Shown piece by piece: positions 3,067 through 53,161 of a stretch of DNA of 64,000 nucleotides; position 1 is the first letter of the stretch; each line of letters begins with the position of its first letter. The notes under the pieces are model-generated. The model was not told the origin of the DNA. It saw only the letters and a program-made list of their open reading frames with translations, and made no database searches. The translations under genes were made by a program, and so were the position numbers. The stretch lies in contig CACWKU010000001.1 of NCBI GenBank assembly GCA_902761575.1, positions 22,435 through 86,434 of the forward strand, written 5' to 3'. The stretch comes from an uncultured bacterium (GTDB taxonomy: Bacteria > Verrucomicrobiota > Kiritimatiellia > RFP12 > UBA3636).

Positions 3067-3122
3067 ATTCTAGGCGTTGCCCCGTTTCGAAGATAGGGAC
3101 ACGGAACGCGGAAACAAGTAAA
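3067..3122 (-). promoter_or_regulatory. Tripartite upstream cassette copy 1 (putative promoter of 1..2975)
   Basis: Sense strand: TTTACT (3122-3117), N18, CCCTAT (3098-3093), N20, TAGAAT (3072-3067). The ATG is 92 nt downstream. Confidence 0.55.
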
Positions 3123-3203
3123 TTTCATTCATTCGCCCGAATCCAACCCGCGGCGCGAAGCGAACGGGTTGCCTCGCGTTCGGCCCGGTCTCCGCGTTCC
3201 CTA

Positions 3204-5243
3204 TCAAACGCGTGCGAGGTCCTTCTCGCGCAGGAGGCGCCAGGCGGCGTCGCGGACGTCCGTGACGTCGTCGCGCAGCCTGCCGCAGCGGCACGGGCGG
3301 AGGCGCACGAGGTGCGTCGCGTGGCCGGGGACGGAGGCCTCGTAGACGCCCATGAAGACGCCCTCGTCCTCCTGCCGCCACACGTCGCGCACGAGCCACT
3401 TGCAGAGCAGCCCGGCCTTCTTGAGGTCGAAGGGCACCATCCGCTCGAAGCCGGACTTGTTGTAGAGGCCGGCGGCGATGGAGCCGTCGGCGAGCGGGCG
3501 CGCCCAGACCTCCCAGCCGTCGCCCTCGGCGATGCAGCCCGCGGCCTTGCCGAGCTCGTCCTGGTCGATCTCGATCACCTCGTCGTTCGTGAGGAGCGAG
3601 CGCGTGAACGGGGAGAGCTTCGTAAGATCGCAACCGATCATGAGCGGCGCCGCGAGGAGCGCCCACATCGAGACGTGCGTGTACTGCTCGTTCGGCGCGA
3701 GGCGCGACTCCTTGCCGTCGTTCCAGCAGACCGCGCCGACGCAGAGCATGTCCGGGTCGTTCCACGCGCCGGGGCCGGCGTAGAGGAAGAGGCGCTTCTG
3801 CTTCTCGATGGCGGCGGAGACCGAGGACCAGGTGTCGAAGACGTCGCCCGTCGTGCGCCAGCTCTGCCCGCCGACGCATCGCCCCCACGCGCTCACGTTC
3901 TCCATGCCGTACTGGCAGAGCGAGAGGACGATGTCCCGCTTCTGGTGGCGCAGCGCGGCGCCCATCACGAGGTAGGGGTACATCGCGCGGAGCACGTCGG
4001 AGCCGAACGCGACGTCGTCGTAGAAGCACCAGTCGTGCTTGAGGTAGTCGAAGCCCCACTCGGCGAACGTCTTCGCGTCGAGCTCCTCGTGCTGCCAGCT
4101 CCCGGCGGCGCGGCCGCAGGTGAACGGACCGGGGCTCGAGTAGATGCCGGCCTTGAGGCCCTTCGCGTGGATGTGGTCCGCGAGCGCCTTCATGTCGGGG
4201 AAGCGCCGGTTCGCGGCGATGCGGCCGTCGGCGTCGCGCAGGGGCCCGTCGAGGTCGGGGTCCTCCTTCGCGCGCTCGGGGATGTTCTGCCAGAAGTCGT
4301 CGACGTTCACGTAGGCGTAGCCGTGGTCCGCGAGGCCCGTCGCGACGAGCGCGTCCGCGGCGGTGCGGACCTTCTCGTCCGAGACGCTTCCGGCGAACGC
4401 GTTCCAGCTGCTCCAGCCCATCGCGGGCGTGAGGCAGATCGTCTCGCCGACCCGGATCGTGAACGGCTTCTCGTCGCTGCCGAGGCGGTTCGTCGCGCGG
4501 ATCGCGAGCGCGTAGTCGCCGGGCTCGTCGATGCGGCCGGAGAGGATCCGCGTGGCGGGGTCGTAGGAGAGGCCCGCGAGCTTCGGACTGTCGAGCCCGA
4601 GGCCGATCACCTCGACGCGGAGCGGCGCGGCGCCGGTCGCGGGCACGCGGAAGAGGATGGGGCGGCCGGGCCGCACGCCGTAGACGCACGGGCCGTTCAC
4701 GCGCGGCTCGGGGCGCTCCGGCGGCGTGAGGATCCCGAGCTGGCGCGACGTGCGCCGGACGTCGTTCGGGAGCACCTTGCCGTCGGCGTAGAGCAGCTTC
4801 GCCCCGCCCCAGACGGCGCCGACGCCCTTCCCCGCCCCGCCGTCCGCCGGCTCGGCGACGAGCGTGAACGTCTGGGCGCCGCTCACGTCCGCGCGCGCCT
4901 TGAGGTCGGCCGTGTCGCCCGCCGCCACGACTCCCGACCAGACTTCGCGGCCGTCGGCGAGGACCTTCAGGGCGACCGTGCCCGGCGCGCCGGCGGCGTC
5001 GATGCCGCAGGACGCCTCGAACGCGGCCGCGTCGCCGCCGACCGGGATCTCCACGGCGAACGGCACGGGCGTGCGCAGCCCGAAGAAGTGCTTCTTCGCG
5101 GGGGTCGAGAAGCGCTTCTCGATCGCCGCGCAGGCGACCTCGCAGACGCCCTCGCCGCGCACGACCCTCGTGACGTCGAACATCTCGGCGGGGACGTAGT
5201 GGACGGCGGCGGGCGCCGTTGTGTGTTTCGTGGAACGTTTCAT
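3204..5243 (-). CDS. GH27-family alpha-galactosidase with an N-terminal NPCBM-like beta-sandwich
   Basis: Track ORF 3204..6602 trimmed to the internal ATG at 5243 (MKRSTKHTT..), 5 nt after the stop of the upstream gene. The rest of the track ORF is R/G-rich nonsense in an alternate frame of 5249..10795. GH27-like motifs: TPAMGWSSWNAF, YVNVDDFWQ, FDYLKHDWCF. No obvious signal peptide. Confidence 0.9.
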   Translation of the reverse strand: MKRSTKHTTAPAAVHYVPAEMFDVTRVVRGEGVCEVACAAIEKRFSTPAKKHFFGLRTPVPFAVEIPVGGDAAAFEASCGIDAAGAPGTVALKVLADGREVWSGVVAAGDTADLKARADVSGAQTFTLVAEPADGGAGKGVGAVWGGAKLLYADGKVLPNDVRRTSRQLGILTPPERPEPRVNGPCVYGVRPGRPILFRVPATGAAPLRVEVIGLGLDSPKLAGLSYDPATRILSGRIDEPGDYALAIRATNRLGSDEKPFTIRVGETICLTPAMGWSSWNAFAGSVSDEKVRTAADALVATGLADHGYAYVNVDDFWQNIPERAKEDPDLDGPLRDADGRIAANRRFPDMKALADHIHAKGLKAGIYSSPGPFTCGRAAGSWQHEELDAKTFAEWGFDYLKHDWCFYDDVAFGSDVLRAMYPYLVMGAALRHQKRDIVLSLCQYGMENVSAWGRCVGGQSWRTTGDVFDTWSSVSAAIEKQKRLFLYAGPGAWNDPDMLCVGAVCWNDGKESRLAPNEQYTHVSMWALLAAPLMIGCDLTKLSPFTRSLLTNDEVIEIDQDELGKAAGCIAEGDGWEVWARPLADGSIAAGLYNKSGFERMVPFDLKKAGLLCKWLVRDVWRQEDEGVFMGVYEASVPGHATHLVRLRPCRCGRLRDDVTDVRDAAWRLLREKDLARV

Positions 5244-5248
5244 GGGAT

Positions 5249-8200
5249 CTAGCGCGTCAGGATCGCCCGGTAGAAATGGTGCTGGTCCGTGGCGGGCTGC
5301 CACGGGCCGGAAAGCGCGTCGGCGCCGAAGACCGTCACGGTCCCGTTGTAGGTCCCGGCGATGGCCGGAACCGTGCCCGGATCGATTCCCGCGAAGCGGA
5401 ACGCGGACTTCGCCTCGTCGAGGCCGGCCACGGCGCAGTTCAGAAGGTAGGCCGCCGAAAGCGCGTTGTCGGGGTTCCCGTCCGCGTCGAAGGACATCGC
5501 GTTCACGTCCGCGCCGCCGAACGGCACGCCGTTCGCGCGCGCCCACTTCGAGAGCCTGCGCAGCTCCGCCGTCGTGGTGCCGGCCTCCGCGAAGGCGCCG
5601 CCCGTGAGGCCGAGGTCCGCCGGCGAGGTGGCGTCCGTGATCGCCGTGTCGGGGTCCTCGGGCCAGTCCTGGAAGCCGCCGCCGCCGGCCTCGCCGAGGT
5701 CTCGGACCTGGAGGGCGGCGACGTAGCGCGCGGCGCCCGATCCGCCCATCTTGAACGTGACCACATGCGACGATGATTCCGCCGTGAACGAACCGTACAC
5801 CGTCGCGCCGGACGAGCCGTTCCCGTTCTGGATGCTGACGGAGGGCAGATCGCCGATCGTGATGTAGGCGTTTCCATACGAGTTGCGGGCCAGGATCTGC
5901 AGGAGATACGCATGGCCGGCCGTCAATCCCGAAAGCGTCAGATGGATCTCGCCCATGCCCGTATCCACGCCGAAGTCCCAGACCGTACCGAGGAGCGAGC
6001 TGCTCCCGGCGCTCACGTCCGCGCCGACGAAGGTCGGAGCAAAGGAAATGCTCGCCCCGGACAGGTTGGCGCCGGCCTGGAACGTCACGCCGCCCAGGGT
6101 CCGGTCCGTCGAGGCCCCGCGATAGGCGTAGAGAAGCGTGCCGTCCGTCCGGAGCATCGTTTCGTCCGACGCGCTCAGCGTCGCGACGGTCCAGCCCTCC
6201 ACGACGGAACCGCCGCCGCCCGACGTGTTGACGGCGAACGAGACGGACTTCGTGGCCGTCTTGCCCTTGTCGGTCGTGACCGTGACTGCGCAGGCGTAGG
6301 AGCCGTCGGCGAGGTTCTCGATGGAGAACGAGGCGGTGTCGTCGGTCTGGTTCGCGAGCGCCGCGACGGCGGTCCCGCCGTTCAGCGCGTAGGAGACGGA
6401 GTAGGACGACGCGGCCGCGCCCGCGTCGTCCGTTCCGAGCACGATGCCGGAGAGCGTGACCGTCGCGTTCGAGCCTGCAACATTGGCGGTCGCCGCGGCG
6501 ATCGACGGCGCGATGACCGGCGGCGGAGGCGTGCCGATCCGGAAGGAGACCGACTTCGCCGCCGAGGTCTTGCCCTTGTCGGTCGCGATCGTGACGACGC
6601 AAGTGTAGTCGCCGTCGGCGAGGTTCTCGATGGCGAACGACGCCGTCGCGCCGGTCTGGTTCTGCAGCGCCGTGACGGCGGTCCCGCCGTTCAGCGCGTA
6701 GGAGACGGAATAGGAAGTGGCGTCAGTCCCGGCATCGTCCGTCCCCATCACGATGCCGGAGAGAAAAAGCGACGCGGTGCTCCCGTCCGGAGTCGCGGTC
6801 ACGCTGCCGATCGACGGCTCGACGACCGTCGCCCCGCCGCCGCCGCCACCCCCGCCGCCGCCGTCGAGCTCGCGGACCTGGACGGCGTTGAACGGCATCT
6901 TGCCGCTACCGCCCTGATAGGTGATCGTCACGTCCTTCGTCGCGCCGACGGCCGTGAAGACGCCCGTGACGAGCGCGCCGTACTTCCCGCTCGCCTCGTT
7001 GTCGCCGTGGATGTGCACGGGGTCGCACCCGTTCGCGGAGACGGTCGTCGTGTTGTTCCAGTAGTTGTGCGCCAGGAACTGGACGAGGTAGATCTTCCCG
7101 CCTTCGAGATTCGAGAGCGTCAGCGTGACCGTGTGCGTGCCTGATCCGTCGCTGTCCCAGTACCAGCCGTTGCCGAGGGAGAGGCCGAGGTTGCCGCCGA
7201 CGCTTTCGTTCATGAAGTCGCCGGTGAAGCCGTCGATGTTGGGTGTGAAGGAGATCTTCGGAGGATTCTCCGAGGACTGGAGGTTCACGGACCGCTCGAA
7301 CGGGATTCCGTTGATGGTCCCGCCGTTGCAGACATAGCCGTAGACGAACGTGCCCTCCGTGCTGAATGCGGTGCCGCCCGCGTCCATGTATCCGGAGGTC
7401 CAGACATCGGAGACGGCGCTCGTGTTGACGTAGAAGACGACGGACTTCGTCTTCGCTCGCCCCTTGTCCGTCGTCATCGTGACCTCGCACGTGTGGTTGC
7501 CGTCCGCGAGGCCCTCGAGCGTGAACGAGCAGTCTTCCGACGTCTGGTCGGAGAGCGCCGTCACGGCCGCCGCGCCGTCGAGCTTGTAGGCGACGGAATA
7601 CTTCGTCGCGGGAACGGAGTTGGCGTCCGTGCCGAGGACGACGCCCGTGAGCGAGATCGTCGCGTTCGAACCGCTCGGCGCCGCGGCGAGCTCCGCGATG
7701 CGGGGATACTTCGGCCGGTTGTTCGTCGCGCGGTTCTGCGCGAACATCCAGACGAATCGGTGGTTCGGCGCGCCCGCCGTGACGTCGTCCTCCGTGGCGT
7801 AGCACGTCGTCCAGGCGTCGTGGCTGTTGTTCTCGAGCTTCTCGAAGATCACGTCCGATCCGAGCGCCCGGAGCGCCGTGACGATGCCCTCGGTCTGCTC
7901 GACGGGAATGGTCGGGTCTCCGCGGTTGTGCACGGCCAGGACCGGGACGTGCGCGATGTCGGCCGCGCAGGCGGGATCGCCGCCGCCGCAGCACGGCATC
8001 GCCGCGGCGAAGAAGTCGGGCCGGCGGCAGATCGCGTCCCAGGTCCCGTGCCCGCCCATCGAGAGGCCGGTGACGTAGATGCGGTCGGCGTCGACGTCCG
8101 CCATCGCGGCGTAGGCGTCGAGAAGGTCGAACACCGCCTGGAGCGCCGCGGACGGCTTGTCCTGGAACGTGCAGGTGGTCGAGTTCATGGAGAACTCCGC

Positions 8201-10795
8201 CCACTTGACGTCGTTCGGGCACTGGGGGACGAGAAGCTTGTAGCCGCTTGGGCCGCCCGCGCCGTCGAGGTAGCGCTGAATGTTCGACATCTCGTTGATC
8301 GTGAACGAATTGTCGACGCCGCACTGGCCGTATCCGTGAAGGAACACGACGACGGGAACCTTGCCGCCGTTCGGATCGGCCTTCGCCGCGACGCGGTAGG
8401 GGAGCTGAAGCTTGTTGGACGCGATGAAGGTCTTCTTGACGAATTCGCCGGTCAGGTCGTCGCCGCCGCCACCACCGCCGCCGCCGCCACCGCCGAGCTC
8501 GCGGAGCTGAATGGCCTTGACGAGGCATTTGCTGCCGGAGGTGGCGAACGTGACGGTCACGGTCTCCTGCGCGCCCGTCGCCTCGAACACGCGCGAAATG
8601 ACGGCGCCGCACTTGTAGTCGTTCTGCTTGGTGGCCTCGAACGGAACGAGATCGCCGGCGGAGAGCGTCGTCGAGGAATTGTTCCAGTGGTTGGCGGCGA
8701 GAATCTGGACCAGGTACTTCTTCCCGGCCGTGAGCCCCTGGAGGGTGAAGGCAAGGTCCAGCGAGGAGTCGCTCTTCTCCCACACCCAGCCGCCGTTGAA
8801 CACCGGGTTGTTCTCCGTCCAGCCCGCGCCGGCGTACGACGAGGGCGAGACCGTCGCCTGGTCCGAGCCCGGGAAGCCCGCGGAGAACGAGACGCCGTTG
8901 ACAGTGTGCCCGGTGAAGCCGCGCGCGAAGACCTGCGTGCCGTCGCTGCGGAACGCCGAGCCCGTCGCGTCCATCGGCGCGACCTTCCAGCCGACGGCGT
9001 CGGCCTGGGAATCGATCTGGAACTTGACGCGCTTCACGGCGGACATCACGACGCCGTCCGACGAAACCCAGACCGCGCAGGTGTGCCAGCCGTCGGCGAG
9101 GTCCGCGAGCTCGAACGAGGCCGAGGAGCCCGTCTCCGCCGCGGGAAGCGCCGTCTCGGCGCCCGCGTCGAGCTTGTAGGAGACCGCGAAGGACGCAGCG
9201 GCCGCGCCGCTCGCGTCCGTGCCCTTCGTCACGTTCGAAAGCGAGATCGTCGCCGACGTGCCGCTGACCTGCGCGGCGGCGGAGCCGATCGTCGGAAGCA
9301 CGACGGGCGAGGCGCCGGCCGTCGCCATCGCGCTGGCGATCGCGGGCGCGAGGATCTCCTCGTAGGCCTTCGTGGTCAGGTGCAGGAACTGGTCGGGATA
9401 GTCGCCGTTGCCCTGGAGGTACATCTCGCCGCGGTACGTCCCGTCGGCGTTCAGGAACTGGCTGCGGACGTCGACGAGGATCACGCGCTCTCCGTCCGCG
9501 AACGTCCGGATGATCTCGTTCGCCGCCTCGTTGTTGGCGTAGTGCGCGGCGCCCTTCGCGCCGTTCTGCGCGTTCGTGTAGCCGTAGGGGATGATCGGCA
9601 TCAGGAGGACCTTCGACTCGGGATGCTTCGCGAGGATGAGGTCGAGCACGGCGCGCACGCCCGCGGCGATGTCCGCGGGATCCTCGCTCGGATTCTTCCC
9701 GATCGTGTTGTTCGTGCCGATCAGCAGGTTGAAGAACTTCGTCGTGTAGCCGTCGATGCAGCCGCTCTCGAGGCGCCACAGCAGGTTCTCCACGAAGTCG
9801 CCGGTCCGGCCGAGGTTCAGGACGTTGGCGGCGAGTCCGTTCATGGACGAGGCGCTGTTCCCCTCCATCCACTTCTGAGTGAGGGAGTCGCCGAGGAGGA
9901 CGAGATCGAAGCTCCGGCCGTTTTCGCCGATGAGCTTCAGGTCGTCCTCGAACTTCCGCCAGAAGGCGTCCTGCAGATCGGCGTTGACCGCCGTCGGGAA
10001 CGTCGCGATGCGGTCGATCTCGGGACGCGCCGTCGCCACGAGGTCGGCGGGCATCGCGGAGCCGCCCGCCGCGGCGGCGACGTAGGGCGCGACCGCCTGG
10101 GCCCAGACCTCGTAGCCGGCCGCGTTCAGCGTGACGCGGTCGGCATTGAAGAGCGAGGTCTTCAGCGTGTGGTGGTCGTTCTCGAGGAAGAGGTCCGACA
10201 TGTCCACCCAGGCGCATCCCTTCTTCTGCGCGTACGCGCGAACGTCGATGTTCAGGCGGTCGTTGCGCGGACGCACGGGATCGGACTCGTCGAGCCCGCG
10301 CGGAAGCACCGCCTGCACGACGACCTTGGACGCGCCAACGCTTGCGACGAGGTCGTCGATGATTTCGCGCACGCCCAGGTACGTCTTCCCCTCCGGCTCC
10401 TCCTTCTCGGTGTAGATCGCGGCGTTGTTGCCGCCGACCATCAGGAAGACGACCTTGGGGCTGCCGAGCTCGCCGTTCCGGATGCGCCAGAGGACGTTCT
10501 CCGTGCAGTCGCCGGCGAAGCCGAGGTTGAACATTGTCCTGTCGCCGGTGAAGTAGGTCGCGAGCGCGCCCGCGCCCGTCGTCTCCCAGTCCTGCGTCAG
10601 CTCGTCGCCGAGGAAGACGATGTCCTTCCTGATGGAACTGTCGGCCACCGCCGCGACCTTCTCGGCGTGGCGCGCCGTCCACCAGGCGTCGAGCCGCGAG
10701 GCGGGGGTGTTCGCGCGGATGGACACCGCGGGTGCGTTCACAGCGGCCATCGCGAGGATCGCCGCGGACAGGAACGTGAAGGAGTGGGGTTTCAT
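5249..10795 (-). CDS. Giant secreted multi-esterase (1848 aa): 2 SGNH domains, an alpha/beta (CE1/PHB-depolymerase-like) esterase, 4 Ig-like repeats, 3 'QVR' modules, poly-Gly linkers and a conserved C-terminal tail
   Basis: Track ORF 5249..10888 trimmed to the ATG at 10795 (MKPHSFTFLSAAILAMAAVNAPA signal peptide). Motifs: IVFLGDELTQDW and LVLLGDSLTQKW/GTNN (SGNH); VVVFLHGYGQCG and GLSMGGHGTW (Ser-hydrolase elbow). Gly runs of 9-11 residues. Modules end KAIQLRELG, NAVQVRELD and ALQVRDLGE. The tail ends HHFYRAILTR. Confidence 0.9.
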   Translation of the reverse strand: MKPHSFTFLSAAILAMAAVNAPAVSIRANTPASRLDAWWTARHAEKVAAVADSSIRKDIVFLGDELTQDWETTGAGALATYFTGDRTMFNLGFAGDCTENVLWRIRNGELGSPKVVFLMVGGNNAAIYTEKEEPEGKTYLGVREIIDDLVASVGASKVVVQAVLPRGLDESDPVRPRNDRLNIDVRAYAQKKGCAWVDMSDLFLENDHHTLKTSLFNADRVTLNAAGYEVWAQAVAPYVAAAAGGSAMPADLVATARPEIDRIATFPTAVNADLQDAFWRKFEDDLKLIGENGRSFDLVLLGDSLTQKWMEGNSASSMNGLAANVLNLGRTGDFVENLLWRLESGCIDGYTTKFFNLLIGTNNTIGKNPSEDPADIAAGVRAVLDLILAKHPESKVLLMPIIPYGYTNAQNGAKGAAHYANNEAANEIIRTFADGERVILVDVRSQFLNADGTYRGEMYLQGNGDYPDQFLHLTTKAYEEILAPAIASAMATAGASPVVLPTIGSAAAQVSGTSATISLSNVTKGTDASGAAAASFAVSYKLDAGAETALPAAETGSSASFELADLADGWHTCAVWVSSDGVVMSAVKRVKFQIDSQADAVGWKVAPMDATGSAFRSDGTQVFARGFTGHTVNGVSFSAGFPGSDQATVSPSSYAGAGWTENNPVFNGGWVWEKSDSSLDLAFTLQGLTAGKKYLVQILAANHWNNSSTTLSAGDLVPFEATKQNDYKCGAVISRVFEATGAQETVTVTFATSGSKCLVKAIQLRELGGGGGGGGGGGDDLTGEFVKKTFIASNKLQLPYRVAAKADPNGGKVPVVVFLHGYGQCGVDNSFTINEMSNIQRYLDGAGGPSGYKLLVPQCPNDVKWAEFSMNSTTCTFQDKPSAALQAVFDLLDAYAAMADVDADRIYVTGLSMGGHGTWDAICRRPDFFAAAMPCCGGGDPACAADIAHVPVLAVHNRGDPTIPVEQTEGIVTALRALGSDVIFEKLENNSHDAWTTCYATEDDVTAGAPNHRFVWMFAQNRATNNRPKYPRIAELAAAPSGSNATISLTGVVLGTDANSVPATKYSVAYKLDGAAAVTALSDQTSEDCSFTLEGLADGNHTCEVTMTTDKGRAKTKSVVFYVNTSAVSDVWTSGYMDAGGTAFSTEGTFVYGYVCNGGTINGIPFERSVNLQSSENPPKISFTPNIDGFTGDFMNESVGGNLGLSLGNGWYWDSDGSGTHTVTLTLSNLEGGKIYLVQFLAHNYWNNTTTVSANGCDPVHIHGDNEASGKYGALVTGVFTAVGATKDVTITYQGGSGKMPFNAVQVRELDGGGGGGGGGGATVVEPSIGSVTATPDGSTASLFLSGIVMGTDDAGTDATSYSVSYALNGGTAVTALQNQTGATASFAIENLADGDYTCVVTIATDKGKTSAAKSVSFRIGTPPPPVIAPSIAAATANVAGSNATVTLSGIVLGTDDAGAAASSYSVSYALNGGTAVAALANQTDDTASFSIENLADGSYACAVTVTTDKGKTATKSVSFAVNTSGGGGSVVEGWTVATLSASDETMLRTDGTLLYAYRGASTDRTLGGVTFQAGANLSGASISFAPTFVGADVSAGSSSLLGTVWDFGVDTGMGEIHLTLSGLTAGHAYLLQILARNSYGNAYITIGDLPSVSIQNGNGSSGATVYGSFTAESSSHVVTFKMGGSGAARYVAALQVRDLGEAGGGGFQDWPEDPDTAITDATSPADLGLTGGAFAEAGTTTAELRRLSKWARANGVPFGGADVNAMSFDADGNPDNALSAAYLLNCAVAGLDEAKSAFRFAGIDPGTVPAIAGTYNGTVTVFGADALSGPWQPATDQHHFYRAILTR

Positions 10796-10883: not shown

Positions 10884-10940
10884 ATCATACCGCCGCGCCC
10901 GCCCGTTCGGCTAGGTAGATTCGCGGCGGATATCAGTAAA
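10884..10940 (-). promoter_or_regulatory. Tripartite upstream cassette copy 2 (putative promoter of 5249..10795 and the GH27 gene)
   Basis: TTTACT (10940-10935), N18, ACCTAG (10916-10911), N21, TATGAT (10889-10884). Confidence 0.55.
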
Positions 10941-12616: not shown

Positions 12617-12690
12617 CGTGTGCCTCGTGTTGCTTGGGTTGTCGCCGCCGGGTCCGCCGCGATGGCGGGGACGCCGTCCGACAAGCCGGC

Positions 12691-12747
12691 ATTCTACCCG
12701 TACCGGCCTTTCGGCGGAAAGGGAGTCGCCCGGCGATATCGGGTAAA
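12691..12747 (-). promoter_or_regulatory. Tripartite upstream cassette copy 3 (putative promoter of 10964..12616)
   Basis: TTTACC (12747-12742), N18, CCCTTT (12723-12718), N21, TAGAAT (12696-12691). Confidence 0.55.
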
Positions 12748-19524: not shown

Positions 19525-19591
19525 GGTTCGCTCCCGGCTACGGGTTGCCTGGTCGGGCGAACGCGACGACGTCCCCCGCCACGAGTCCGGA

Positions 19592-19647
19592 ATCATAGTG
19601 CATCCGGCCTTGCGACGGTAGGGACGGCGCGGCCAAAAATGGGTAAA
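19592..19647 (-). promoter_or_regulatory. Tripartite upstream cassette copy 4 (putative promoter of 17155..19524 and 16226..17158)
   Basis: TTTACC (19647-19642), N18, CCCTAC (19623-19618), N20, TATGAT (19597-19592). Confidence 0.55.
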
Positions 19648-19694
19648 TACGAGGGCGGCCCGGTTGCTCGCCCAGGCGTCATTTCCGACGATGC

Positions 19695-35724: not shown

Positions 35725-35737
35725 GGAAGGAAGGCCC

Positions 35738-36388: not shown

Positions 36389-36476
36389 GGGACGTCTCCT
36401 TGTCCGGGACGGGGTTGTCGTCGGCCGGTTCTCCCGGCCGCCTCCGACGGAGGCCGTGGCGGTGCCGACGTCCCGT

Positions 36477-36533: not shown

Positions 36534-36549
36534 GCGCCCAGCCCTTCGC

Positions 36550-36573
36550 GTGGCGGGGTGCGGACCCCGCCAC
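36550..36573 (-). terminator. GC palindrome hairpin 24 nt after the stop of 36598..39927, immediately upstream of cassette copy 7
   Basis: GTGGCGGGGT-gcgg-ACCCCGCCAC (10-bp stem). No U tract follows. Confidence 0.4.
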
Positions 36574-36597
36574 GGCGGCGAACGCCACAAGGGGCGG

Positions 36598-39927: not shown

Positions 39928-39966
39928 GGTCGTTTTCCCCTGGATGGTTCCGGTCGGACTTGCGGG

Positions 39967-41203: not shown

Positions 41204-41260
41204 AGTATACCCCACGGACCGCTCGCGAAGAAAGGGCGAAATCGGGCAAAGACGGGTAAA
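41204..41260 (-). promoter_or_regulatory. Tripartite upstream cassette copy 8 (putative promoter of 39967..41121 and 36598..39927)
   Basis: TTTACC (41260-41255), N18, CCCTTT (41236-41231), N21, TATACT (41209-41204). Confidence 0.55.
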
Positions 41261-43644: not shown

Positions 43645-46467
43645 CTATGGCGCCGGATGGATGCGGTAGAGGTGGCGGTAGTGCCCGGGATAGAAGTCGG
43701 CGAAGGAGCCGTCCGCGAGCGGGAGGGTGCGGTTCTCGTAGAGGACCTCGACGGTGCCGGCGCGCGGGGCGTCGGGCGGGAGCGTGAAGGTCACGGCCTC
43801 GAGCGGGTCGGCGTCGATGTTGCACGAGAAGATATACCAGTCGTCGCCGCACTTCGAGGTGCGGTGGCGGAGGAGGTCCGGCCCGACAGAGGCGCGCGCG
43901 GGCTCGCAGACCTCCTCGCTCAGGATCTTGTCCTTGAGCTCCTGTGCCTCGCGGTTGAAGTCGACCATCGCGCGCCAGTTCGCCTCGGAGCCGACCATGT
44001 TCACGAACCACGTGACGCCGGAGCAGCCGGCGCAGATCGCGCCCCAGCACTGCGCGGTCTGCTCGGCGTAGGAGGGCTGCTTGTAGTGGATCGAGTTCAT
44101 CCCCGCGAGGAAGAACCAGCACGGGACGCCCTCGCGCGCCTTGAGCATCTCGTCGACGTTGCGCAGGATCTGGTCGACGGTGCCGAACTCGGCGGCGGTG
44201 AGATAGGCGTCGAGCATGAAGACGTCGGTCCGCAGGTCGGCGAACCGGCTCGGGAAGCCGAACGTCGTGTTGTTCATCTGCACCGGCGTGTAGGGATAGT
44301 GCCTCTTCTCCTCGATCATGAAGTCGCGCACCTCGTCGCTCGGGCGGGAGAGCTCGGGCTCGTCGGTCGCGACGCGGCTCACGATGTTGTCGAAGTCCTT
44401 CAGCCGCTCGCGCGTCTCGGCGCGCGTCTCGGTGGCGCCGTCGCGGTCGCCCGTCCAGAGGATGAAGTCCATCCCGATCTTCCGCCCGTACTCGAGCATC
44501 GCGATCGTCCGGTCGGTGCCCGCCTTGTCGGAGAAGGTGCAGACGTGCGCGTAGCGGAAGCCGCGCGCCTTCATCGCGTCGAGCATCGCGAAGCGGCCGT
44601 CCTCGCGGGGCGGGTTCTCGCGGACGACGAGGCAGTTGGCCGCCATCAGGACCTTCTCCCCTCCCCTCTCGAGGCAGCGCGCGAAGCGGTTGATCTGCGT
44701 GGCGCCCCTCCAGTACGGGAGCTTCACGACCTCGACGGGCCAGTCGCGGCCGTGCGCGCGGACCGTGACGGCGTTCGTGCCGCAGGGCATGCCGCGGATG
44801 TCGAGCGCGACCTCCTCGAGGCGGCCCTCCTCGTCCCAGATGCGCCAGCGCGCCTCGGGCTCGCGCATGTAGAAGTCGAGGCGGCCGAGGACGACCGGCT
44901 CCGGCGCGGCCTTCTTCGCGGCGGCGGCGCGCGCCCACTTCGCGTGGACCTCGGGCGGCAGGTCGAGCGAGGCCCAGAAGGCGTCGTCGCGGAAGTCGCC
45001 GTTCTTGGAGTAGGAGGTCCCGGGGCACTGCGGGTTCTCCCCGTGGCGGTCGTTGCGGCCGAGGTTGAAGAGCCAGTGCGCGTCCATGCCGCGCTCCGCG
45101 AGGTCCGCGAAGGGGACGGTGACGAGGTACTCGACCGCGCCGCCCGCGTCGCGCGCCTGCACGGTCCAGGAGCCGTCCCAGGTCTTGTCCTCGCCGTAGG
45201 CGTCGGCGCGGCAGCCGTTCGGCGCGCAGAAGAGGTGGTAGTTCTTCTTCTCCTCCGTCGGGCGCAGCAGCACCTCCACGGAGTCGCGGATGCAGATCTC
45301 GGTCGCGTCCTTGAAGTAGGGCGCGTGGCCGATCTCCGCGGGATCCTCGCCGAAGTTGCGGAAGCCGATGTAGAGGCGGTCGTCGTCGCACGCGAGGAAG
45401 GCCTGCGTGCGCTGGACCGGCTCCTCGCGCTTCACGTAGAACCGGCCGGCGTCGGCCGCGTGAGCCTCCCACGAGGAAAGATCGACGGTGGGCCGCACGC
45501 CCGCGGGGAGCTTTTTCACCCGAACGGTCGGCGGGCGCTCCGCCTTCTCCTGCCGCCCGAAGCGCGTGGCGTCGAGGTCGCTCGGACGCCACTGCGTCGC
45601 CGCGTCGCCGAACTCGAGCTGGAGGTCGTCGAGCCAGATGCAGCCGTCGTAGCGCGACGGATTTCGCACCTCGAACTGGACGGGGCTGAAGAGGCCTGGC
45701 GCCGGCATGTTCGTCGTCGCGAGCTCGTAGCGGGCCCACTCGGTCGAGAGCGCGAACGTGCGCCGCTCGGGGCCGAGCGACACGGTGATCTCCATCCCGG
45801 GCCTCTCCGCCTTCATCCAGCCCGAGAACACCCCGTGGGCACCCTTGCGCGTCGCCGTGCGCCACGGGTAGAACGACACGTTCGCGCAGTACGGCCGCAC
45901 CGCGAGGCGGAACGACTGCCTGCCCGAGTGCTTCTCCGCGGTGTCCACCGCGAAGCCCTTCGTCCACTCCTCGTACTCCGCGCCGCCGTAGTGGCGCCAG
46001 TCGAACGCGCCGCGGTTGCAGAAATAGGGCGGGACGCCGTCCTCGTCGAACTCGAAGCCGGAGTTCACGATGAGGTTCGGCGAGGCGTCGGCGTCCTCCG
46101 GGAGCGAGACCACGACGTCGTCGATCAGGCGCGGGGCCGCGCCCCGCGCCTCGAAGACGACGGCCGGGCTCTTCGCCCGCTCGCGCTCCTCGCGGCGAGG
46201 CGCGCGCTCCTCGCCCTCGACCCACTCCAGGACGTATTTCTCGGGCACGGCGCCGCGCCACGTCGCCTTCGCGCCGGGCGAGACGACGAGCCGGCCGCCC
46301 TCGCTGCGGATCTCGCCGTCCGCGCGCCAGTGCTCGGCGAGCGTCTGGCTCGTGGCGAAGTCGTCGGAGAAGACGGAGATCCCGGCCGCCGGAGCGGACG
46401 GCGCGGCCGCGGCCGCGAGCAGGACGAGGGCCGCCGGGAGGCGGGCGTTCCGGAAAGTCGCTTTCAT
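43645..46467 (-). CDS. Large secreted putative glycoside hydrolase (940 aa), paralog of 36598..39927 lacking the first N-terminal sandwich
   Basis: Track ORF. Signal peptide MKATFRNARLPAALVLLAAAAAPSAPAAG. Shares VNSGFEFDEDGVPPYFCNR, HSGRQSFRL, IWLDDLQLE, GMPCGTNAVTVRA, VATDEPE, PYTPVQMNN and EVLYENRTL with its paralog. Confidence 0.85.
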   Translation of the reverse strand: MKATFRNARLPAALVLLAAAAAPSAPAAGISVFSDDFATSQTLAEHWRADGEIRSEGGRLVVSPGAKATWRGAVPEKYVLEWVEGEERAPRREERERAKSPAVVFEARGAAPRLIDDVVVSLPEDADASPNLIVNSGFEFDEDGVPPYFCNRGAFDWRHYGGAEYEEWTKGFAVDTAEKHSGRQSFRLAVRPYCANVSFYPWRTATRKGAHGVFSGWMKAERPGMEITVSLGPERRTFALSTEWARYELATTNMPAPGLFSPVQFEVRNPSRYDGCIWLDDLQLEFGDAATQWRPSDLDATRFGRQEKAERPPTVRVKKLPAGVRPTVDLSSWEAHAADAGRFYVKREEPVQRTQAFLACDDDRLYIGFRNFGEDPAEIGHAPYFKDATEICIRDSVEVLLRPTEEKKNYHLFCAPNGCRADAYGEDKTWDGSWTVQARDAGGAVEYLVTVPFADLAERGMDAHWLFNLGRNDRHGENPQCPGTSYSKNGDFRDDAFWASLDLPPEVHAKWARAAAAKKAAPEPVVLGRLDFYMREPEARWRIWDEEGRLEEVALDIRGMPCGTNAVTVRAHGRDWPVEVVKLPYWRGATQINRFARCLERGGEKVLMAANCLVVRENPPREDGRFAMLDAMKARGFRYAHVCTFSDKAGTDRTIAMLEYGRKIGMDFILWTGDRDGATETRAETRERLKDFDNIVSRVATDEPELSRPSDEVRDFMIEEKRHYPYTPVQMNNTTFGFPSRFADLRTDVFMLDAYLTAAEFGTVDQILRNVDEMLKAREGVPCWFFLAGMNSIHYKQPSYAEQTAQCWGAICAGCSGVTWFVNMVGSEANWRAMVDFNREAQELKDKILSEEVCEPARASVGPDLLRHRTSKCGDDWYIFSCNIDADPLEAVTFTLPPDAPRAGTVEVLYENRTLPLADGSFADFYPGHYRHLYRIHPAP

Positions 46468-46497: not shown

Positions 46498-46554
46498 ATC
46501 CTACCACACCGTCCCGAGGGGCGGCTAGGTACGCCGGGGCCTGAAAGCGGTAAA
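46498..46554 (-). promoter_or_regulatory. Tripartite upstream cassette copy 9 (putative promoter of 43645..46467)
   Basis: TTTACC (46554-46549), N18, ACCTAG (46530-46525), N21, TAGGAT (46503-46498). Confidence 0.55.
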
Positions 46555-48841: not shown

Positions 48842-48943
48842 GCAAGAAATTGTACCATCCGCTCCGTGCCCTCCCCGTGCCCCTCGCTCGCCCCGCGCCG
48901 GGTCGGCGGTGGTCGTAGCTCGCATCGCTCGGTCCCGAAAACC

Positions 48944-49027
48944 AACAAACTCCCGAGTGTTTATTCAACAAACTCCCGAACGATTCTTCAACAAACTCCC
49001 GGACGAAATTTCAACAAACTCCCGAAC
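48944..49027 (+). repeat. Four direct repeats of CAACAAACTCCCGR (iteron/operator-like), period 22-23 bp, ending 3 nt before the -35 of the ATPase promoter
   Basis: Repeat starts at 48944, 48966, 48989 and 49012. The 14-nt core is identical except for R. The spacers are AT-rich and not conserved. Confidence 0.8.
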
Positions 49028-49067: not shown

Positions 49068-50348
49068 ATGAAACGGTACGCGAAGAGAGTGGCGGATAGT
49101 TTGCTCGCCCGAAAGCTCCAAGGGCTAGGCGCCGTTCTCGTCCAAGGGGCCAAATGGTGCGGCAAGACAACGACCTGCGAACAGGTCGCCAAGAGCGTTC
49201 TGTACATGGGCGACCCGAAGAAGCGCAAGGAGAATCTGGAGATGGCGTCGATCGACGTCACATCGCTTCTGGAGGGTGCGAAGCCAAGGCTCATCGACGA
49301 ATGGCAGGTCGCACCCGTGTTTTGGGACGCGATCCGCCACGCGGTGGACCACGCCGACGGTCCGGGGCAGTTCATCCTGACCGGCAGCGTGGTTCCCCCG
49401 AAGACCGAGGAGAAGACCCATAGCGGGACGGGGCGGATCGCCCGTCTCACCATGCGCCCGATGACGCTCTGGGAAAGCGGTGAGTCGAGCGGAACGATCT
49501 CCCTCGCCGAACTGTTTTCGGGAACGGCCCCGGATAGCGCCCGCGCCATGGGGCGCGAACTGGAGGAGATCGCGTTCCTCGCCTGCCGGGGCGGATGGCC
49601 CCAGGCGGTCCTTCGGAAGGGCGACGTCGCCCTCGACCTCGCCTTCGACTACGTGGACTCGGTCGCGGACGAGGACATCTCGCGCGTGGACGATGTGAGG
49701 CGCGACCCCGCGCGCGCCCGACGCCTTCTGCGCTCCTACGCGCGGCTCCAGGGCTCTCAGGCGAACCTCAAGGCCATCAAGCTTGACATGGCGGGCGGCG
49801 GGATCGACGCCCCGGACGAGGACACCGTCGCCTCCTACCGCGGCGCCCTCGAAAAGCTCTTCGTCGTGGAAGACGTGCCGGCCTGGTGTCCGAACCTTCG
49901 GTGCCGGACCCCTATCCGCACGAGCGGCACGCGCTGCTTCGTCGACCCGTCCATCGCTGCGGCGTCCCTCGGTCTCGGCCCGGGCGGCCTGATGTCCGAC
50001 CTGACGACGTTCGGCTTTTTCTTCGAAACGCTGGCCGTCCGCGACCTTCGCGTCTACGCAGAAGCCCTGTCCGGGAGCGTCGCCCACTACCGTGACGCCT
50101 CCGGGCTCGAATGCGACGCCGTCATCCATCTCCGCAATGGCGCCTACGGTCTCGTCGAGGTCAAGCTCGGCGGCGACCGACTCGTTGCCGAAGGCGTGGA
50201 AACCCTCCTGGCCTTCTCAGGCAAGATCGACACCGACGCAATGAAGGCGCCGGCGTTCCGTATGGTCCTTACGGCCGTCGGCGACTATGCCTACCGTCGT
50301 CCGGCCGATGGCGTCTACGTCTGTCCCCTCTCCGCTCTCTGTCCCTGA
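49068..50348 (+). CDS. AAA+ ATPase of the AAA_14/DUF4143 type (426 aa)
   Basis: Track ORF. Walker A GAKWCGKTT. The C-terminal ..HYRDASGLECDAVIHLRNGAYGLVEVKLGG.. is typical of DUF4143 proteins. Preceded by a low-GC region with a near-consensus promoter and four direct repeats. Confidence 0.85.
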   Translation: MKRYAKRVADSLLARKLQGLGAVLVQGAKWCGKTTTCEQVAKSVLYMGDPKKRKENLEMASIDVTSLLEGAKPRLIDEWQVAPVFWDAIRHAVDHADGPGQFILTGSVVPPKTEEKTHSGTGRIARLTMRPMTLWESGESSGTISLAELFSGTAPDSARAMGRELEEIAFLACRGGWPQAVLRKGDVALDLAFDYVDSVADEDISRVDDVRRDPARARRLLRSYARLQGSQANLKAIKLDMAGGGIDAPDEDTVASYRGALEKLFVVEDVPAWCPNLRCRTPIRTSGTRCFVDPSIAAASLGLGPGGLMSDLTTFGFFFETLAVRDLRVYAEALSGSVAHYRDASGLECDAVIHLRNGAYGLVEVKLGGDRLVAEGVETLLAFSGKIDTDAMKAPAFRMVLTAVGDYAYRRPADGVYVCPLSALCP

Positions 50349-50409: not shown

Positions 50410-53025
50410 CTAGTTCTTCGCGGGCGTGCCGGCGCCGGCGCCGGCCTTGAACTCCATCCTGCTCAGGCGCTGGAGCTGAAGGACGGTGAAGCCGATCAGC
50501 ATGGAGCCGAGCACCCAGGCCATCGCCGTGGCGGGACCGAAGCGCAGGTAGCCGAACGCCTCCCAGAAGATGTGCAGCCCGACGACCTCCGTCGCGCCGT
50601 ACGGCGTGTAGGGGCCGCCGCCCGTCATCGCGAGCACGAACTCGCCGCCGCTCTTCATCGCGCCGATCGCGGCGCCGACGAAGTTGATCAGGATCAGCGA
50701 CCGGATGCCCGGCAGCGCCACGTGGCGGATCTTGCCGAAGAGGCCCGAGCCCTCGAGCTCGGCCGCCTCGTAGAGGTCGTCCGGGACGGTCTTGAGGGCC
50801 GCGAGGTACACGAGGCAGCCCGGCCCCATGCCGGCCCAGATCGTCGGCAGGAGGCACAGCAGGAGCGCCGCCTTCGGCTCGGAGAGCCAGGCCTTCGCGA
50901 GGTCCGGATAGGAGGTGCCGAACACGTAGTTCACGGCGTGGACGCAGCCGTTGATCATCTGGTTGAGGGCGCCGTAGGGACCGTAGAAGCCCTTCCAGAG
51001 GAAGATCACGACAACGCCCGAGAGCACGGCGGGGAGGTAGTAGATCGTGCGGTAGAGGATCTTGCCGCGCGGCACCTCGGAGAGGAGCAGGGCGAGGACG
51101 ATCGGCGCGACGAACCCGAGCCCGAGGTAGAGCGCGGCGTATTCCGCGGAGACGAGCATCGCGTGCCAGAACTCGCCGCTGAAGAGGACGTTGGCGAAGT
51201 TGTCGAGCCCGACCCACTGCGAGTAGCCGCGGACGTTGTAGTCCTGGAACGCCATCGCCGTGCCGCGCGCGAGCGGCCAGTAGGACCAGACCGCGAGCGA
51301 GAGCAGCGCGGGGAGCAGCAGCAGGTAGGCGGCGCCGCGCCCGGAGTCGTTGCGGCGCGAGCCGCCCGCCGGGTCGCGCGGGACCGCGGCGGCGAAGGTG
51401 CGCATCACGCGGCGGAAGACGAAGAAGAACGCGAGCGCCATGCCGACGACGACGACCGCCGCGACGCGGCGGCGGAAGCGCATCTTCTCCGGCGGCACGC
51501 GCCCGATCATCTTCTCGTCGGCGAGCGCGACGCGCTCGCGCAGGATCGCGCCGATGCGCTCGCGCGCGGCGGGGACGTCGCCGCGGCGGATGGCGTCGCG
51601 CACGGCGCCGTCGTTGCGCGCCTGGTCGATGGCGCGGGACATGTAGGTGTAGACGAGCTGGCAGTTGCGGCCGTAGGGCTCGGGGACGCCGTTCTCGCGC
51701 GCGACGGCGGCGGCCTCGTCCCAGCCCTCGGGGCAGGCGAAGGCCTCCGGGTCGAAGCCCGCCTCGCGCAGCGCGGAGGGCGGGACGAAGCGGCCGAGGC
51801 CGTTCTCGACGTAGGTGCGCGTCCGGATCTTGCGCGCCTCGCGCCCGCCCATGAACCACGCCCACTCCCACGCGAGCTCCGGCACGCGCGGGTCGCGGTC
51901 GCCGCTGCCGGCGTAGACGCCGAGCATGCCGCAGTTGTACTCGCTGCCGCGGCGGCCGGACGGGCCGCGGGGCACCGGGCCGAAGCCGATCAGGTTCGGG
52001 TCGATCTGCTGGAAGGTGTCCTGGTCGAGGTAGGAGAACCACATCGCGGAGCGCTGGCCGGGCGTGAAGGCCTCGCCCGTGTCGACGCACGTCGGGAGCG
52101 TGCCGCAGGCGTTGGTGAAGGGCTCCAGGTAGAGGCGGCAGACGAACGCGTAGGCGTCCGCCGCCTCGGGCGAGTCGAACGCGCAGCGCCAGGCGCCGTC
52201 CGCGTCGCGCTTCACGGCTCGGCCGCCCCACGAGTAGAGGAACGAGAGCGTGCTCCAGCCCGTCTCGCCGGTCGGGAGCGAGAGGCCCCAGGTCTTGTCC
52301 GCCGGGTTCGTGACGCGGCGCGCCCAGTCGAGGAGCTCGTCCGCCGTCTCCGGCACGCGGTCCGGGAGCCCCGCCTCCGAGAAGACGTCGCGCCGGTAGA
52401 AGAGCGCCATCACGAGCTGCTTGTGCGGGACGGCGAAGGTGTGGAAGTGCTCCGCGCACGGCTCGCGGCCCCATTCGCGCAGGTAGGGGCAGTCCTCGCC
52501 CCACGGGCACTCGCGGCGGATGACGTCCCACAGCACGGGCGGGAGGCGGTCGCGCAGCTCCTCCTCGAAGCGCGGGCCGGTCCGGAGCAGGTCGAGATAC
52601 TCCGGGTTGGGGAGCCGGTGCGCCTCGCGCGTCGCCTCCGGCGAGAGGCCGTCCTCCCGCTCGAGCCAGGCGTCGAGCGGCATCAGGAAGCGGTTGCGGA
52701 CGTAGGTGTCGGACTGGCGGAAGTTCACGTACATCGCGTCCGGCGCGACGTCGCCCGCAATCTGCATGAGCGGGGTCGTGTCCATCGCGCGACCGCCGGG
52801 CAGGACGAGCCCGCCGGAGGACTCGAGCCGCGCCTCGGGGTGCAGCGCGCGGAAGGCGTCCGCGACGCGGACGGAGCATTCGCCCTCGACGCCCTGCGGC
52901 TCGCCGCTGGGGACGCCCCACGAGCGCACGACGGGCGGGCCGTCCTCCGCCGCCGCGAACGCGGCGCACGCGAGGAGGACGGCGATCGCCGGCAGGCGAC
53001 GGAAGGGACGGATCGTTGCGTTCAT
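50410..53025 (-). CDS. Fusion of a sugar-type ABC extracellular solute-binding protein and a MalF-like ABC permease in one 871-aa polypeptide
   Basis: Track ORF 50410..53115 trimmed to the ATG at 53025 (MNATIRPFRRLPAIAVLLACAAFAAA signal peptide). The N-terminal ~530 aa are SBP-like. A TM segment follows (RVAAVVVVGMALAFFFVF), then a permease core with an EAA loop (DLYEAAELEGSGLFGKIRHVALPGIR). Confidence 0.85.
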   Translation of the reverse strand: MNATIRPFRRLPAIAVLLACAAFAAAEDGPPVVRSWGVPSGEPQGVEGECSVRVADAFRALHPEARLESSGGLVLPGGRAMDTTPLMQIAGDVAPDAMYVNFRQSDTYVRNRFLMPLDAWLEREDGLSPEATREAHRLPNPEYLDLLRTGPRFEEELRDRLPPVLWDVIRRECPWGEDCPYLREWGREPCAEHFHTFAVPHKQLVMALFYRRDVFSEAGLPDRVPETADELLDWARRVTNPADKTWGLSLPTGETGWSTLSFLYSWGGRAVKRDADGAWRCAFDSPEAADAYAFVCRLYLEPFTNACGTLPTCVDTGEAFTPGQRSAMWFSYLDQDTFQQIDPNLIGFGPVPRGPSGRRGSEYNCGMLGVYAGSGDRDPRVPELAWEWAWFMGGREARKIRTRTYVENGLGRFVPPSALREAGFDPEAFACPEGWDEAAAVARENGVPEPYGRNCQLVYTYMSRAIDQARNDGAVRDAIRRGDVPAARERIGAILRERVALADEKMIGRVPPEKMRFRRRVAAVVVVGMALAFFFVFRRVMRTFAAAVPRDPAGGSRRNDSGRGAAYLLLLPALLSLAVWSYWPLARGTAMAFQDYNVRGYSQWVGLDNFANVLFSGEFWHAMLVSAEYAALYLGLGFVAPIVLALLLSEVPRGKILYRTIYYLPAVLSGVVVIFLWKGFYGPYGALNQMINGCVHAVNYVFGTSYPDLAKAWLSEPKAALLLCLLPTIWAGMGPGCLVYLAALKTVPDDLYEAAELEGSGLFGKIRHVALPGIRSLILINFVGAAIGAMKSGGEFVLAMTGGGPYTPYGATEVVGLHIFWEAFGYLRFGPATAMAWVLGSMLIGFTVLQLQRLSRMEFKAGAGAGTPAKN

Positions 53026-53105
53026 CGAAAGGGGTTCCAAGGGTTGTGTCGCGGTCCCGCGGCCGGCCCGGATCCGATCGCCCCGACCCGCCGAAGACGG
53101 AACCG

Positions 53106-53161
53106 ATGCTATCACCTCGCGCGCGTTGCGGGTAGGGACGGACCGCCCAAAAAGCGGTAAA
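53106..53161 (-). promoter_or_regulatory. Tripartite upstream cassette copy 10 (putative promoter of the SBP-permease fusion gene)
   Basis: TTTACC (53161-53156), N18, CCCTAC (53137-53132), N20, TAGCAT (53111-53106). Confidence 0.55.

Follow-up and report, generated by a model that had tools for sequence, protein, structure and literature searches.

The 64,000-nucleotide (nt) stretch of DNA analyzed here (contig CACWKU010000001.1; hereafter the window) has a GC content of 69% and belongs to an 82 kb rumen metagenome scaffold of Kiritimatiellae (STEW19-1 SAMEA5383797 scaffold_422). Positions 1 to ~53,200 hold a cluster of genes for secreted SGNH/GDSL esterases, alpha-galactosidases and beta-helix proteins, joined by a protein with a weak match to the PATR repeat, a beta-lactamase-family esterase, several large proteins without a Pfam match and a transporter in which a solute-binding protein is fused to an ABC permease. 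Ten transcription units of this cluster are preceded by the same three-block promoter element, here called the cassette, whose sequence, conservation and probable mode of control are the subject of this work. Genes were called from the GC content at codon positions and the context of the start codons, and were annotated with Pfam; adjacent genes were assigned to one predicted operon where the gap between them was at most 40 nt and held no promoter.

The cluster is bordered on one side by an isopropylmalate-dehydrogenase-like gene and on the other by nucleotide-sugar genes, which are followed by the gene of an AraC-family regulator (55840-56691, plus strand; Pfam HTH_18, HTH_AraC and AraC_binding; 2.7 kb from cassette 10), a GH3 operon, and topoisomerase, valS and NAD-synthase genes. 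Extensions of 4.2 kb to the left and 13.8 kb to the right bring the DNA covered to ~82 kb, and at both contig ends these extensions hold housekeeping genes only. The close relatives are the metagenome-assembled genomes RGIG1497, SRR873595_bin.42 and RUG13889, labeled as Kiritimatiellae, 'Verrucomicrobia' or 'uncultured bacterium', with a DNA identity to the window of 77-97%. Stretches of related genomes and metagenomes are referred to below as loci with L numbers.

Sequence and geometry of the cassette

The sequence-only reading of the window had described ten minus-strand cassettes with the pattern TTTAC(C/T), exactly 18 nt, (A/C)CCT(A/T)N, 20 or 21 nt, and TAnnAT. All ten spans were found where it had placed them, on the minus strand, and the complete pattern holds in nine; the copy at 41204-41260 has TATACT as its -10 hexamer. 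The gapped motif TTTACY-N18-MCCTW occurs 10 times in the window, compared with 0.04 occurrences expected from 100 dinucleotide-preserving shuffles, and its extension by N21-22 and TANNAT occurs nine times, compared with 0.00 expected. Ten of the 13 TTTACY hexamers of the window sit in cassettes. All ten cassettes are intergenic (intergenic DNA makes up 5.7% of the window) and co-oriented with the next gene, their -10 hexamers lying 30-91 nt upstream of its ATG.

In each of the 17 distinct promoter families from the window and related genomes, the -10 hexamer begins 50 or 51 nt from TTTAC. The alignment of the cassettes reads aTTTACC..TTTTtGcccG.t..GTCCCTaTCc, followed by the -10 hexamer. The proposed extension of the distal block to aTTTACynnwTTTnG holds, with an invariant G at position 14 (numbered from the first T of TTTAC), and the sequence between the blocks, described earlier as mostly unconserved, is unrelated among the ten copies. 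When a 37-nt weight matrix built from the sites was scanned along the ~82 kb contig, the ten known sites were the only ones retrieved. They scored 32-46 bits, and everything else in the window and the 13.8 kb right-hand extension stayed below 12 bits; the left-hand locus, including its 4.2 kb extension, held no additional copy at a threshold of at least 14 bits. Since nothing else reached these thresholds, there are no weak or cryptic copies and the motif is all-or-none. The matrix scan likewise placed no cassette before the flanking housekeeping, GH3, AraC or nucleotide-sugar genes of the contig.

The individual cassettes and the predicted units behind them, all on the minus strand, are as follows. 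Cassette 1 (3067-3122; TTTACT-N18-CCCTAT-N20-TAGAAT; 43.2 bits) lies before G1, an SGNH/GDSL esterase gene whose unit (3-2975) is cut at the window edge and whose product is 2130 amino acids (aa) long in the full contig. Cassette 2 (10884-10940; TTTACT-N18-ACCTAG-N21-TATGAT; 31.9 bits) precedes the unit G3-G2 (3204-10795), which encodes a 1848-aa double-SGNH esterase and an alpha-galactosidase with an NPCBM domain (Pfam). Another SGNH esterase gene, G4 (10964-12616), follows cassette 3 (12691-12747; TTTACC-N18-CCCTTT-N21-TAGAAT; 37.0 bits), and the unit G8-G7 (16226-19524), for a beta-helix protein and a nucleoside-hydrolase-like protein, follows cassette 4 (19592-19647; TTTACC-N18-CCCTAC-N20-TATGAT; 41.7 bits). 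The highest score, 46.4 bits, belongs to cassette 5 (21834-21890; TTTACC-N18-ACCTAT-N21-TAGAAT), upstream of G9 (19695-21764), whose product has a weak, sub-threshold Pfam match to the PATR repeat. Cassette 6 (27036-27091; TTTACT-N18-CCCTTG-N20-TATCAT; 37.3 bits) stands before the unit G11-G10 (21948-26947), in which G11 encodes 1053 aa without a Pfam match, and cassette 7 (36477-36533; TTTACC-N18-ACCTAC-N21-TATGAT; 44.4 bits) before G15-G14 (34129-36388), coding for a 216-aa secreted protein and a melibiase-like protein. The unit G17-G16 (36598-41121), consisting of a beta-lactamase-family esterase gene and a gene for a 1109-aa protein, is preceded by cassette 8 (41204-41260; TTTACC-N18-CCCTTT-N21-TATACT; 42.4 bits). 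G19 (43645-46467; 940 aa, no Pfam match) comes after cassette 9 (46498-46554; TTTACC-N18-ACCTAG-N21-TAGGAT; 35.6 bits), from which it is separated by a short leader of 30 nt. Cassette 10 (53106-53161; TTTACC-N18-CCCTAC-N20-TAGCAT; 43.0 bits) precedes G24 (50410-53025), the gene of the solute-binding protein/ABC permease fusion. The protein of the first gene has a signal-peptide-like N-terminus in all ten units. Three of the genes downstream of cassettes are SGNH paralogs with similar leaders; the others belong to unrelated families.

If transcription starts ~7 nt past the -10 hexamer, the distal heptamer would occupy ~-60 to -54, the T-tract ~-53 to -49 and the proximal heptamer ~-39 to -33, the whole distal block, including the T-tract ending in G, spanning ~-62 to -49. 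The weak -35 position of the cassettes had been contrasted earlier with plain TTG promoters elsewhere in the window, and this contrast proved sharper than had been stated. TTG lies at the correct -35 distance in one of the ten cassettes (that of G11), whereas TTGnnn-N16-18-TAnnnT is present in all eight non-cassette promoters examined on the contig, namely those of the phytase-like gene, the tandem esterase, the giant gene, the GLUG gene, the pncA operon, the DUF4143 gene, the AraC gene and rdgB. The -35 position of the cassettes reads T(A/T)nC, which is the 3' end of the CCCTA block, and their -10 is of the same type as in the plain promoters of the contig. The absence of the -35 TTG from nine of ten cassettes, together with its retention in all eight other promoters, suggests that the cassette promoters need an activator.

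Stable hairpins upstream of the cassette, after the stop codon of the preceding gene, are evident for G11, G15, G9, G1 and G4 (-26 to -45 kcal/mol) and weak or absent for G3, G19, G17 and G8. The modular design of stop codon, hairpin, cassette and leader that had been proposed therefore applies to about half of the copies, and even there it is no more than a promoter placed behind a terminator. In eight of the ten cassette leaders, the predicted 5' end forms a stem-loop, which is followed by an unstructured CA-rich stretch (gACAACCC) before the ribosome-binding site (e.g. 21765-21827, 36389-36470 and 12617-12684). Non-cassette leaders look similar, so the organism seems to use this arrangement in its mRNAs generally. 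By their folding energies, the leaders were no more stable than shuffled sequences (z from -2.0 to +1.6), and an Rfam scan of the whole window gave 0 matches at the gathering score; we therefore claim no RNA element for the leaders.

Two other kinds of repeats were noticed in the window. Tandem 8-9 nt repeats of GACCATCC/GGACCATC lie at 54609-54708 (minus strand, ~11 copies), 55647-55686 (minus strand, 4 copies) and 62205-62244 (plus strand, 4-5 copies), where they abut the start codons of three nucleotide-sugar genes, one for UDP-glucose dehydrogenase and two for NAD-dependent epimerases. They look like a second, separate common leader signature. Nearly four direct 23-bp repeats (CAACAAACTCCCGAACGATTATT) occupy 48943-49027, within the AT-rich stretch that separates the pncA-NrtR-phosphoesterase operon from the DUF4143 ATPase gene; they stop just before the TTGACA -35 of the latter and resemble an iteron-like or multi-site operator.

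Conservation and distribution of the blocks

Orthologous promoters were fetched with the sequence downstream of the -10 as the only query, so that the motif was unable to bias the choice of orthologs. In every promoter fetched in this way, TTTAC and CCT lay at unchanged offsets, and TTTAC, T11, G14 and CCT were constant while the flanking bases varied. Nine orthologs of the G9 promoter varied freely at positions 6-10 and 15-23 but showed no change in TTTAC, in CCTA or in the T-tract and the G that ends it. The ortholog of the G4 promoter in RUG13889 (L028) is 99% identical from the -35 region onward; most of its positions 7-22 have changed, yet TTTACC and CTCCCTTT are retained. The blocks are also retained in the ortholog of cassette 2 in L028 and in that of cassette 9 in L153 (78% identity). 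Orthologs of cassette 4 were obtained from L079, L149 and L159, and those of cassette 7 from L088, L130, L159, L181 and L191. Within families, the pairwise difference was 0-1% at T11, G14 and CCT, compared with 24-60% at adjacent positions. The 0% difference at TTTAC is an ascertainment effect of the way in which the sites were collected, and the orthologs obtained with the downstream query serve as the unbiased check. By this comparison, the cassette blocks are evidently under selection, remaining constant while the spacers diverge.

To see how widely the cassette occurs, 185,579 species-representative genomes and a metagenome collection were searched with a strict pattern (TTTACC-N3-TTTTG...CCTW...TANNAT) that matches four of the ten window copies (~40%). 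Among the 114 matches in the genome collection, 108 were chance occurrences in AT-rich genomes, and the remaining six, from high-GC genomes, were all homologous to the window. The metagenome collection gave 54 matches, 41 of them again by chance in AT-rich genomes and 13 of high GC. Eleven of these 13 align to the window, and the cassettes of L156 and L185 are near-identical to those of related loci. Distant high-GC relatives with rearranged clusters (L125, L130-L133 and L191/L192; 65-70% GC) carry cassettes before the same gene families. As some matches to the strict pattern should have turned up elsewhere if related genomes held many more copies, and none did, the cassettes appear to mark a small regulon limited to this gene set, and from these scans the regulon looks cluster-confined, not genome-wide. 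The suggestion of the sequence-only reading that the cassette is a dedicated regulon signature is supported by the conservation of the blocks, the replacement of the -35, the absence of cassettes from the flanking housekeeping genes and their restriction to homologs of the cluster.

Several further features of the cluster were recorded. G24 encodes the periplasmic domain SBP_bac_1 and the permease domain BPD_transp_1 in one 871-aa protein, which is an unusual arrangement. Similar C-terminal tails (...FYRAILTR, ...FFQAILTR, ...NAIQVRDLTR and ...FFRVWVRMPE) end the secreted proteins of G2/G3, G4, G5, G12, G15 and G18, with examples at 5249-5300, 10964-11010 and 12804-12850; their recurrence suggests a C-terminal domain or sorting signal without a Pfam match. 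The gene of the DUF4143/AAA_14 ATPase (49068-50348, plus strand; 7050-8255 in L130) recurs in or beside cassette-bearing clusters in two gene arrangements. Finally, two contigs of SRR873595_bin.42, L078 and L110, are 77% and 97% identical to window positions 16989-21194 and 33969-39906, respectively, and these two identity levels suggest either recombination between lineages within the cluster or a chimeric bin.

Sister lineages and candidate regulators

Homologs of G15 at 66-68% identity came from genomes of 60-63% GC (L122/L123, L189 and L126/L127), whose clusters hold a G15-like protein, SGNH esterases, beta-helix proteins, a beta-lactamase-like esterase and ulvan-lyase-like genes. No cassette was present in the promoter regions read in these homologous clusters. 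Their operons carry a palindrome that ends one base before a canonical TTG -35, followed by 17-18 nt and a TATAAT-like hexamer. L122 and L189 each have four copies of TACCCA-N2-TGGGTA, L126 has five of CCCTAC-N4-GTAGGG, and the palindrome of L188, TACCCG-TT-TGGCTA, is a degenerate form of the first. The palindromes are centered near -43.5 or -44.5, if the -10 is taken as -12 to -7. Each lineage shows its own operator type only; the window holds 0 matches to TACCCA-N2-TGGGTA and two chance matches, at 2 mismatches, to CCCTAC-N4-GTAGGG.

Directly beside or inside the cluster in L122, L189 and L188 lie genes for a HisKA_3 histidine kinase and a GerE-type response regulator; in L126 the kinase alone is visible, at the locus edge. 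The response regulator is a member of the NarL/VraR/DesR family (E = 1e-28 against NarL of E. coli), and its IKAHLK segment aligns with VKVHVK of NarL. Lysines stand at both of the two positions that contact bases in NarL-DNA structures. NarL activates napF and yeaR from sites at ~-40 to -49 (PMC4549865), and a cultured member of Kiritimatiellota is reported to have HisKA_3 kinases adjoining glycan-degradation genes (PMC10880615). From the palindromes and the adjoining NarL-family system we infer, with good support, that the sister clusters are controlled by a linked two-component system of NarL type acting from a class-II-like position.

The kinase of L122 (3108-4880) has an N-terminal sensor of ~330 aa and more than 1900 full-length relatives at 42-100% identity (among them homologs P0082-P0201). 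The two of these relatives that have source names are both labeled Kiritimatiellia. The numbers suggest a large paralog expansion of this HisKA_3 kinase family, with possibly one kinase per glycan cluster. P0103 (65% identity) was picked by amino-acid composition, a proxy for GC content, as a candidate kinase ortholog for the lineage of the window.

For the window itself, we consider it probable that the cassettes are housekeeping-sigma promoters that depend on one dedicated DNA-binding activator, and we rank both an UP element and a separate sigma factor below such an activator. The proximal block, T(A/C)CCTAY at ~-39 to -33, would take the place of the missing -35 TTG, and the distal block, (T)TTACCnnT, lies exactly 21 bp, or two helical turns, upstream of it. 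Protomers of one activator could line up along a single helical face between ~-62 and -33; the one nearest the promoter would overlap the -35 position and recruit RNA polymerase in a class-II-like manner, as a substitute for the -35 contact. The ten units comprise ~16 genes, whose products are a transporter and secreted esterases, glycosidases, beta-helix proteins and others; all would be switched on together, presumably by a glycan-derived signal. We infer the transcription start, the sigma factor, activation as opposed to repression, and the identity of the regulator. The likeliest regulator would be a NarL/FixJ response regulator with a GerE-type helix-turn-helix, drawn from the expanded two-component family with HisKA_3 kinases of Kiritimatiellae and encoded outside the cluster. 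This assignment, made by analogy, is a tentative one to which we give somewhat less than even weight.

The analogy draws on the fit of the blocks to the NarL heptamer. When TACYYMT was slid along the 17 promoter families, it matched best at position 3, with 6.0 of 7, and at position 24, with 5.4 of 7 (2.3 expected). These offsets coincide exactly with the two blocks, which share one orientation and are offset by 21 bp. When the cassette was compared with shifted copies of itself, similarity was highest at 10 bp (4.7 of 9) and 21 bp (3.6 of 7), which places the units on one helix face. NarL sites include the engineered TACCCCT-AA-AGGGGTA, made of inverted heptamers, and single heptamers or arrangements other than 7-2-7 are bound as well (PMC4549865). 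A 7-2-7 reading of the distal block as TACCCAT-TT-TTGGCCG was tried and dropped, the right-hand heptamer being barely above chance (1-4 of 7).

Several points weigh against this model of the cassette and its regulator. The fit to TACYYMT was found post hoc and the consensus is degenerate. The inverted partner AKRRGTA averages below 4 of 7 at every offset of the cassette, so the cassette is not a NarL 7-2-7 site. Repeats at 10 and 21 bp suit binding of OmpR/PhoB type or AraC type equally well. Neither a two-component system nor another obvious cognate regulator was found in or beside the cluster on the 82 kb contig, nor was a cognate regulator found in the related high-GC loci read, and a translated search with the sister kinase and response regulator gave no match in any high-GC locus searched. 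The confinement of the regulon to the cluster is itself derived from a strict pattern of ~40% sensitivity and from incomplete metagenome-assembled genomes.

One alternative, which we regard as rather unlikely, is that the lineage has swapped regulators, so that an activator of a type not recognized so far, or a sigma-like factor, reads all three blocks; the regulon would then have been rewired wholesale, as opposed to a single operator having drifted. Less likely still is that the activator is the AraC-family protein encoded at 55840-56691. Two of its monomers would bind, one at a strong distal half-site (TTTACC and TTTTG, which lie in two neighboring major grooves) and the other, 21 bp downstream, at a weaker proximal half-site over the -35, an arrangement like araI1-I2. 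An asymmetric site, a 21-bp repeat and the lack of a -35 are typical of AraC/XylS class II promoters; the cassette is asymmetric, lacks a -35 and has a self-match peak at 21 bp. The gene, whose product has a cupin-type ligand-binding domain, is moreover close to cassette 10 and is retained in close relatives. Yet the units adjoining it, that is, its own unit with a sugar-phosphate-isomerase-like gene, the GH3 operon and the nucleotide-sugar genes, lack the cassette, and no AraC gene lies in the 17-21 kb read around the cassettes of L125, L130, L132 and L191. The proximal and distal half-sites would also share no more than a T(A/C)CC core.

Two readings that dispense with a dedicated activator receive equally little credence from us. 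According to one of them, there is no dedicated regulator at all: the distal block would be an UP element for the C-terminal domain of the RNA polymerase alpha subunit, CCCTA would be a tolerated variant of the -35, and the cassette would serve as a strong constitutive promoter module for highly expressed secreted proteins. The block is indeed T-rich within a genome of 69% GC, and it lies at ~-62 to -49, which is roughly the region that distal UP subsites occupy. However, C5 and G14 never vary, the GC-rich positions 15-23 do, and there is no A-tract, all of which argues for base-specific recognition and not for an A/T tract. The housekeeping promoters of the contig, in addition, do without the cassette, and the operators of these gene families in the sister lineages, beside a two-component system, are palindromes such as dimeric transcription factors bind.

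According to the other, an alternative sigma factor reads the cassette, with TTTACY-N18-CCCTA as a -35/-10 pair in tandem with the downstream promoter, or with a second sigma-70-family factor recognizing CCCTA and TAnnAT. The gap of 18 nt between TTTACY and MCCTW is within the range of sigma-70-family spacers, bacteria of the Planctomycetes-Verrucomicrobia-Chlamydiae group carry many extracytoplasmic function (ECF) sigma factors, and in L191 an ECF-like sigma gene lies ~5 kb from a cassette. Independent tandem promoters would, however, have no need of the rigid offset of 20/21 nt to TAnnAT, and the blocks are unlike the ECF consensus (GGAAC / CGTC). ECF-type elements (a GGAAC/AAC -35 and a CGTC -10, 16-17 nt apart) were found at none of the conserved alignment positions. 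The cassette -10 is, moreover, of the plain type, and the sister lineages use a canonical -35 together with a palindrome. The ECF-like sigma gene of L191 was considered as a driver of the cassettes and rejected; its own promoter is a plain TTGACA-N17-TATAAT without a cassette.

A repressor operator that hides the -35 region until an inducer is present is very improbable. Many glycan-utilization loci are under repressor control and the proximal block does overlap the -35 position, but repressed promoters normally retain a good -35 and -10, and here the -35 is missing in nine of ten copies; the conserved region also reaches ~-62, well upstream of where polymerase needs to be blocked. Common descent only, with promoter and gene duplicated together and the blocks devoid of a shared function, is disfavored to the point of being barely credible, for although the three SGNH paralogs downstream have similar leaders and promoter families travel with their genes between relatives, neither the sequences between the blocks nor the gene families behind them are related from copy to copy, and orthologs differ in the bases next to the blocks but not in the blocks themselves.

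Relation to known regulatory systems

Rumen Kiritimatiellae are uncultured, and we know of no information on how their very large sets of glycan-degrading enzymes are controlled. A regulon signature marks genes that act together on one substrate, and here it jointly marks acetyl-esterases, alpha-galactosidases, beta-helix proteins, unannotated families and a transporter; it also offers a handle for finding the regulator and the signal. Together with the operators of the sister lineages, the cassette forms a natural series in which regulon membership is retained while promoter architecture changes. Promoters of this kind are already known from ordinary bacterial gene control, and no new principle of transcription is involved. 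What is new is this motif and its geometry, and the fact that the same genes are driven from different operators in sister lineages.

The NarL/NarP promoters of E. coli include heptamer-only ones such as narG, and they resemble the cassette in that both of its blocks fit the heptamer TACYYMT. The likeness extends to the use of non-palindromic heptamers, which NarL also accepts, and to the sister half-site TACCCA, which is similar to the half-site of the engineered NarL site (both PMC4549865). Unlike a NarL 7-2-7 site, the cassette has its heptamers as direct repeats 21 bp apart, the proximal one replacing the -35. The lineage of the window also differs in having no linked two-component system in the DNA covered here, and the presumed signal is a glycan and not nitrate.

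The pho box of PhoB and the tandem sites of OmpR consist of adjacent direct repeats with a period of 10-11 bp, in helical phase, and the self-match peak of the cassette at 10 bp resembles this. At promoters of the pho box type, the site replaces a missing -35 and the promoter is activator-dependent. In contrast to PhoB sites, the cassette sequence is unrelated to CTGTCAT and unlike other known boxes, and its blocks are 21 bp apart with a T-tract between them, not adjacent 11-bp repeats; no gene of the OmpR/PhoB family was seen near any of the clusters. AraC/XylS sites (araI1-I2 and the XylS site at Pm) consist of two direct repeats of ~17 bp at a distance of 21 bp; the cassette is comparable in its asymmetry, in its self-match at 21 bp and in having the weaker, proximal unit over the -35, and an AraC gene is near the cassettes. 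The proximal unit of the cassette, however, is nearer to the -10 than araI2, and its units have a 4-base core alone in common. UP elements are A/T tracts at -40 to -60 that are recognized without base-specific invariant positions. The cassette resembles them in its T-rich DNA at ~-62 to -49, but its distal block contains an invariant C and G, has a variable GC-rich interior and is limited to one regulon.

The palindromic operators of the sister lineages (L122/L189, L126 and L188) control the same gene families as the cassette, lie similarly just upstream of the core promoter, and have the bases TACCC and CCCTA(C) in common with it. The sister operators are inverted repeats that accompany a canonical TTG -35 and a linked two-component system, whereas the window has direct repeats, no -35 and no linked system.

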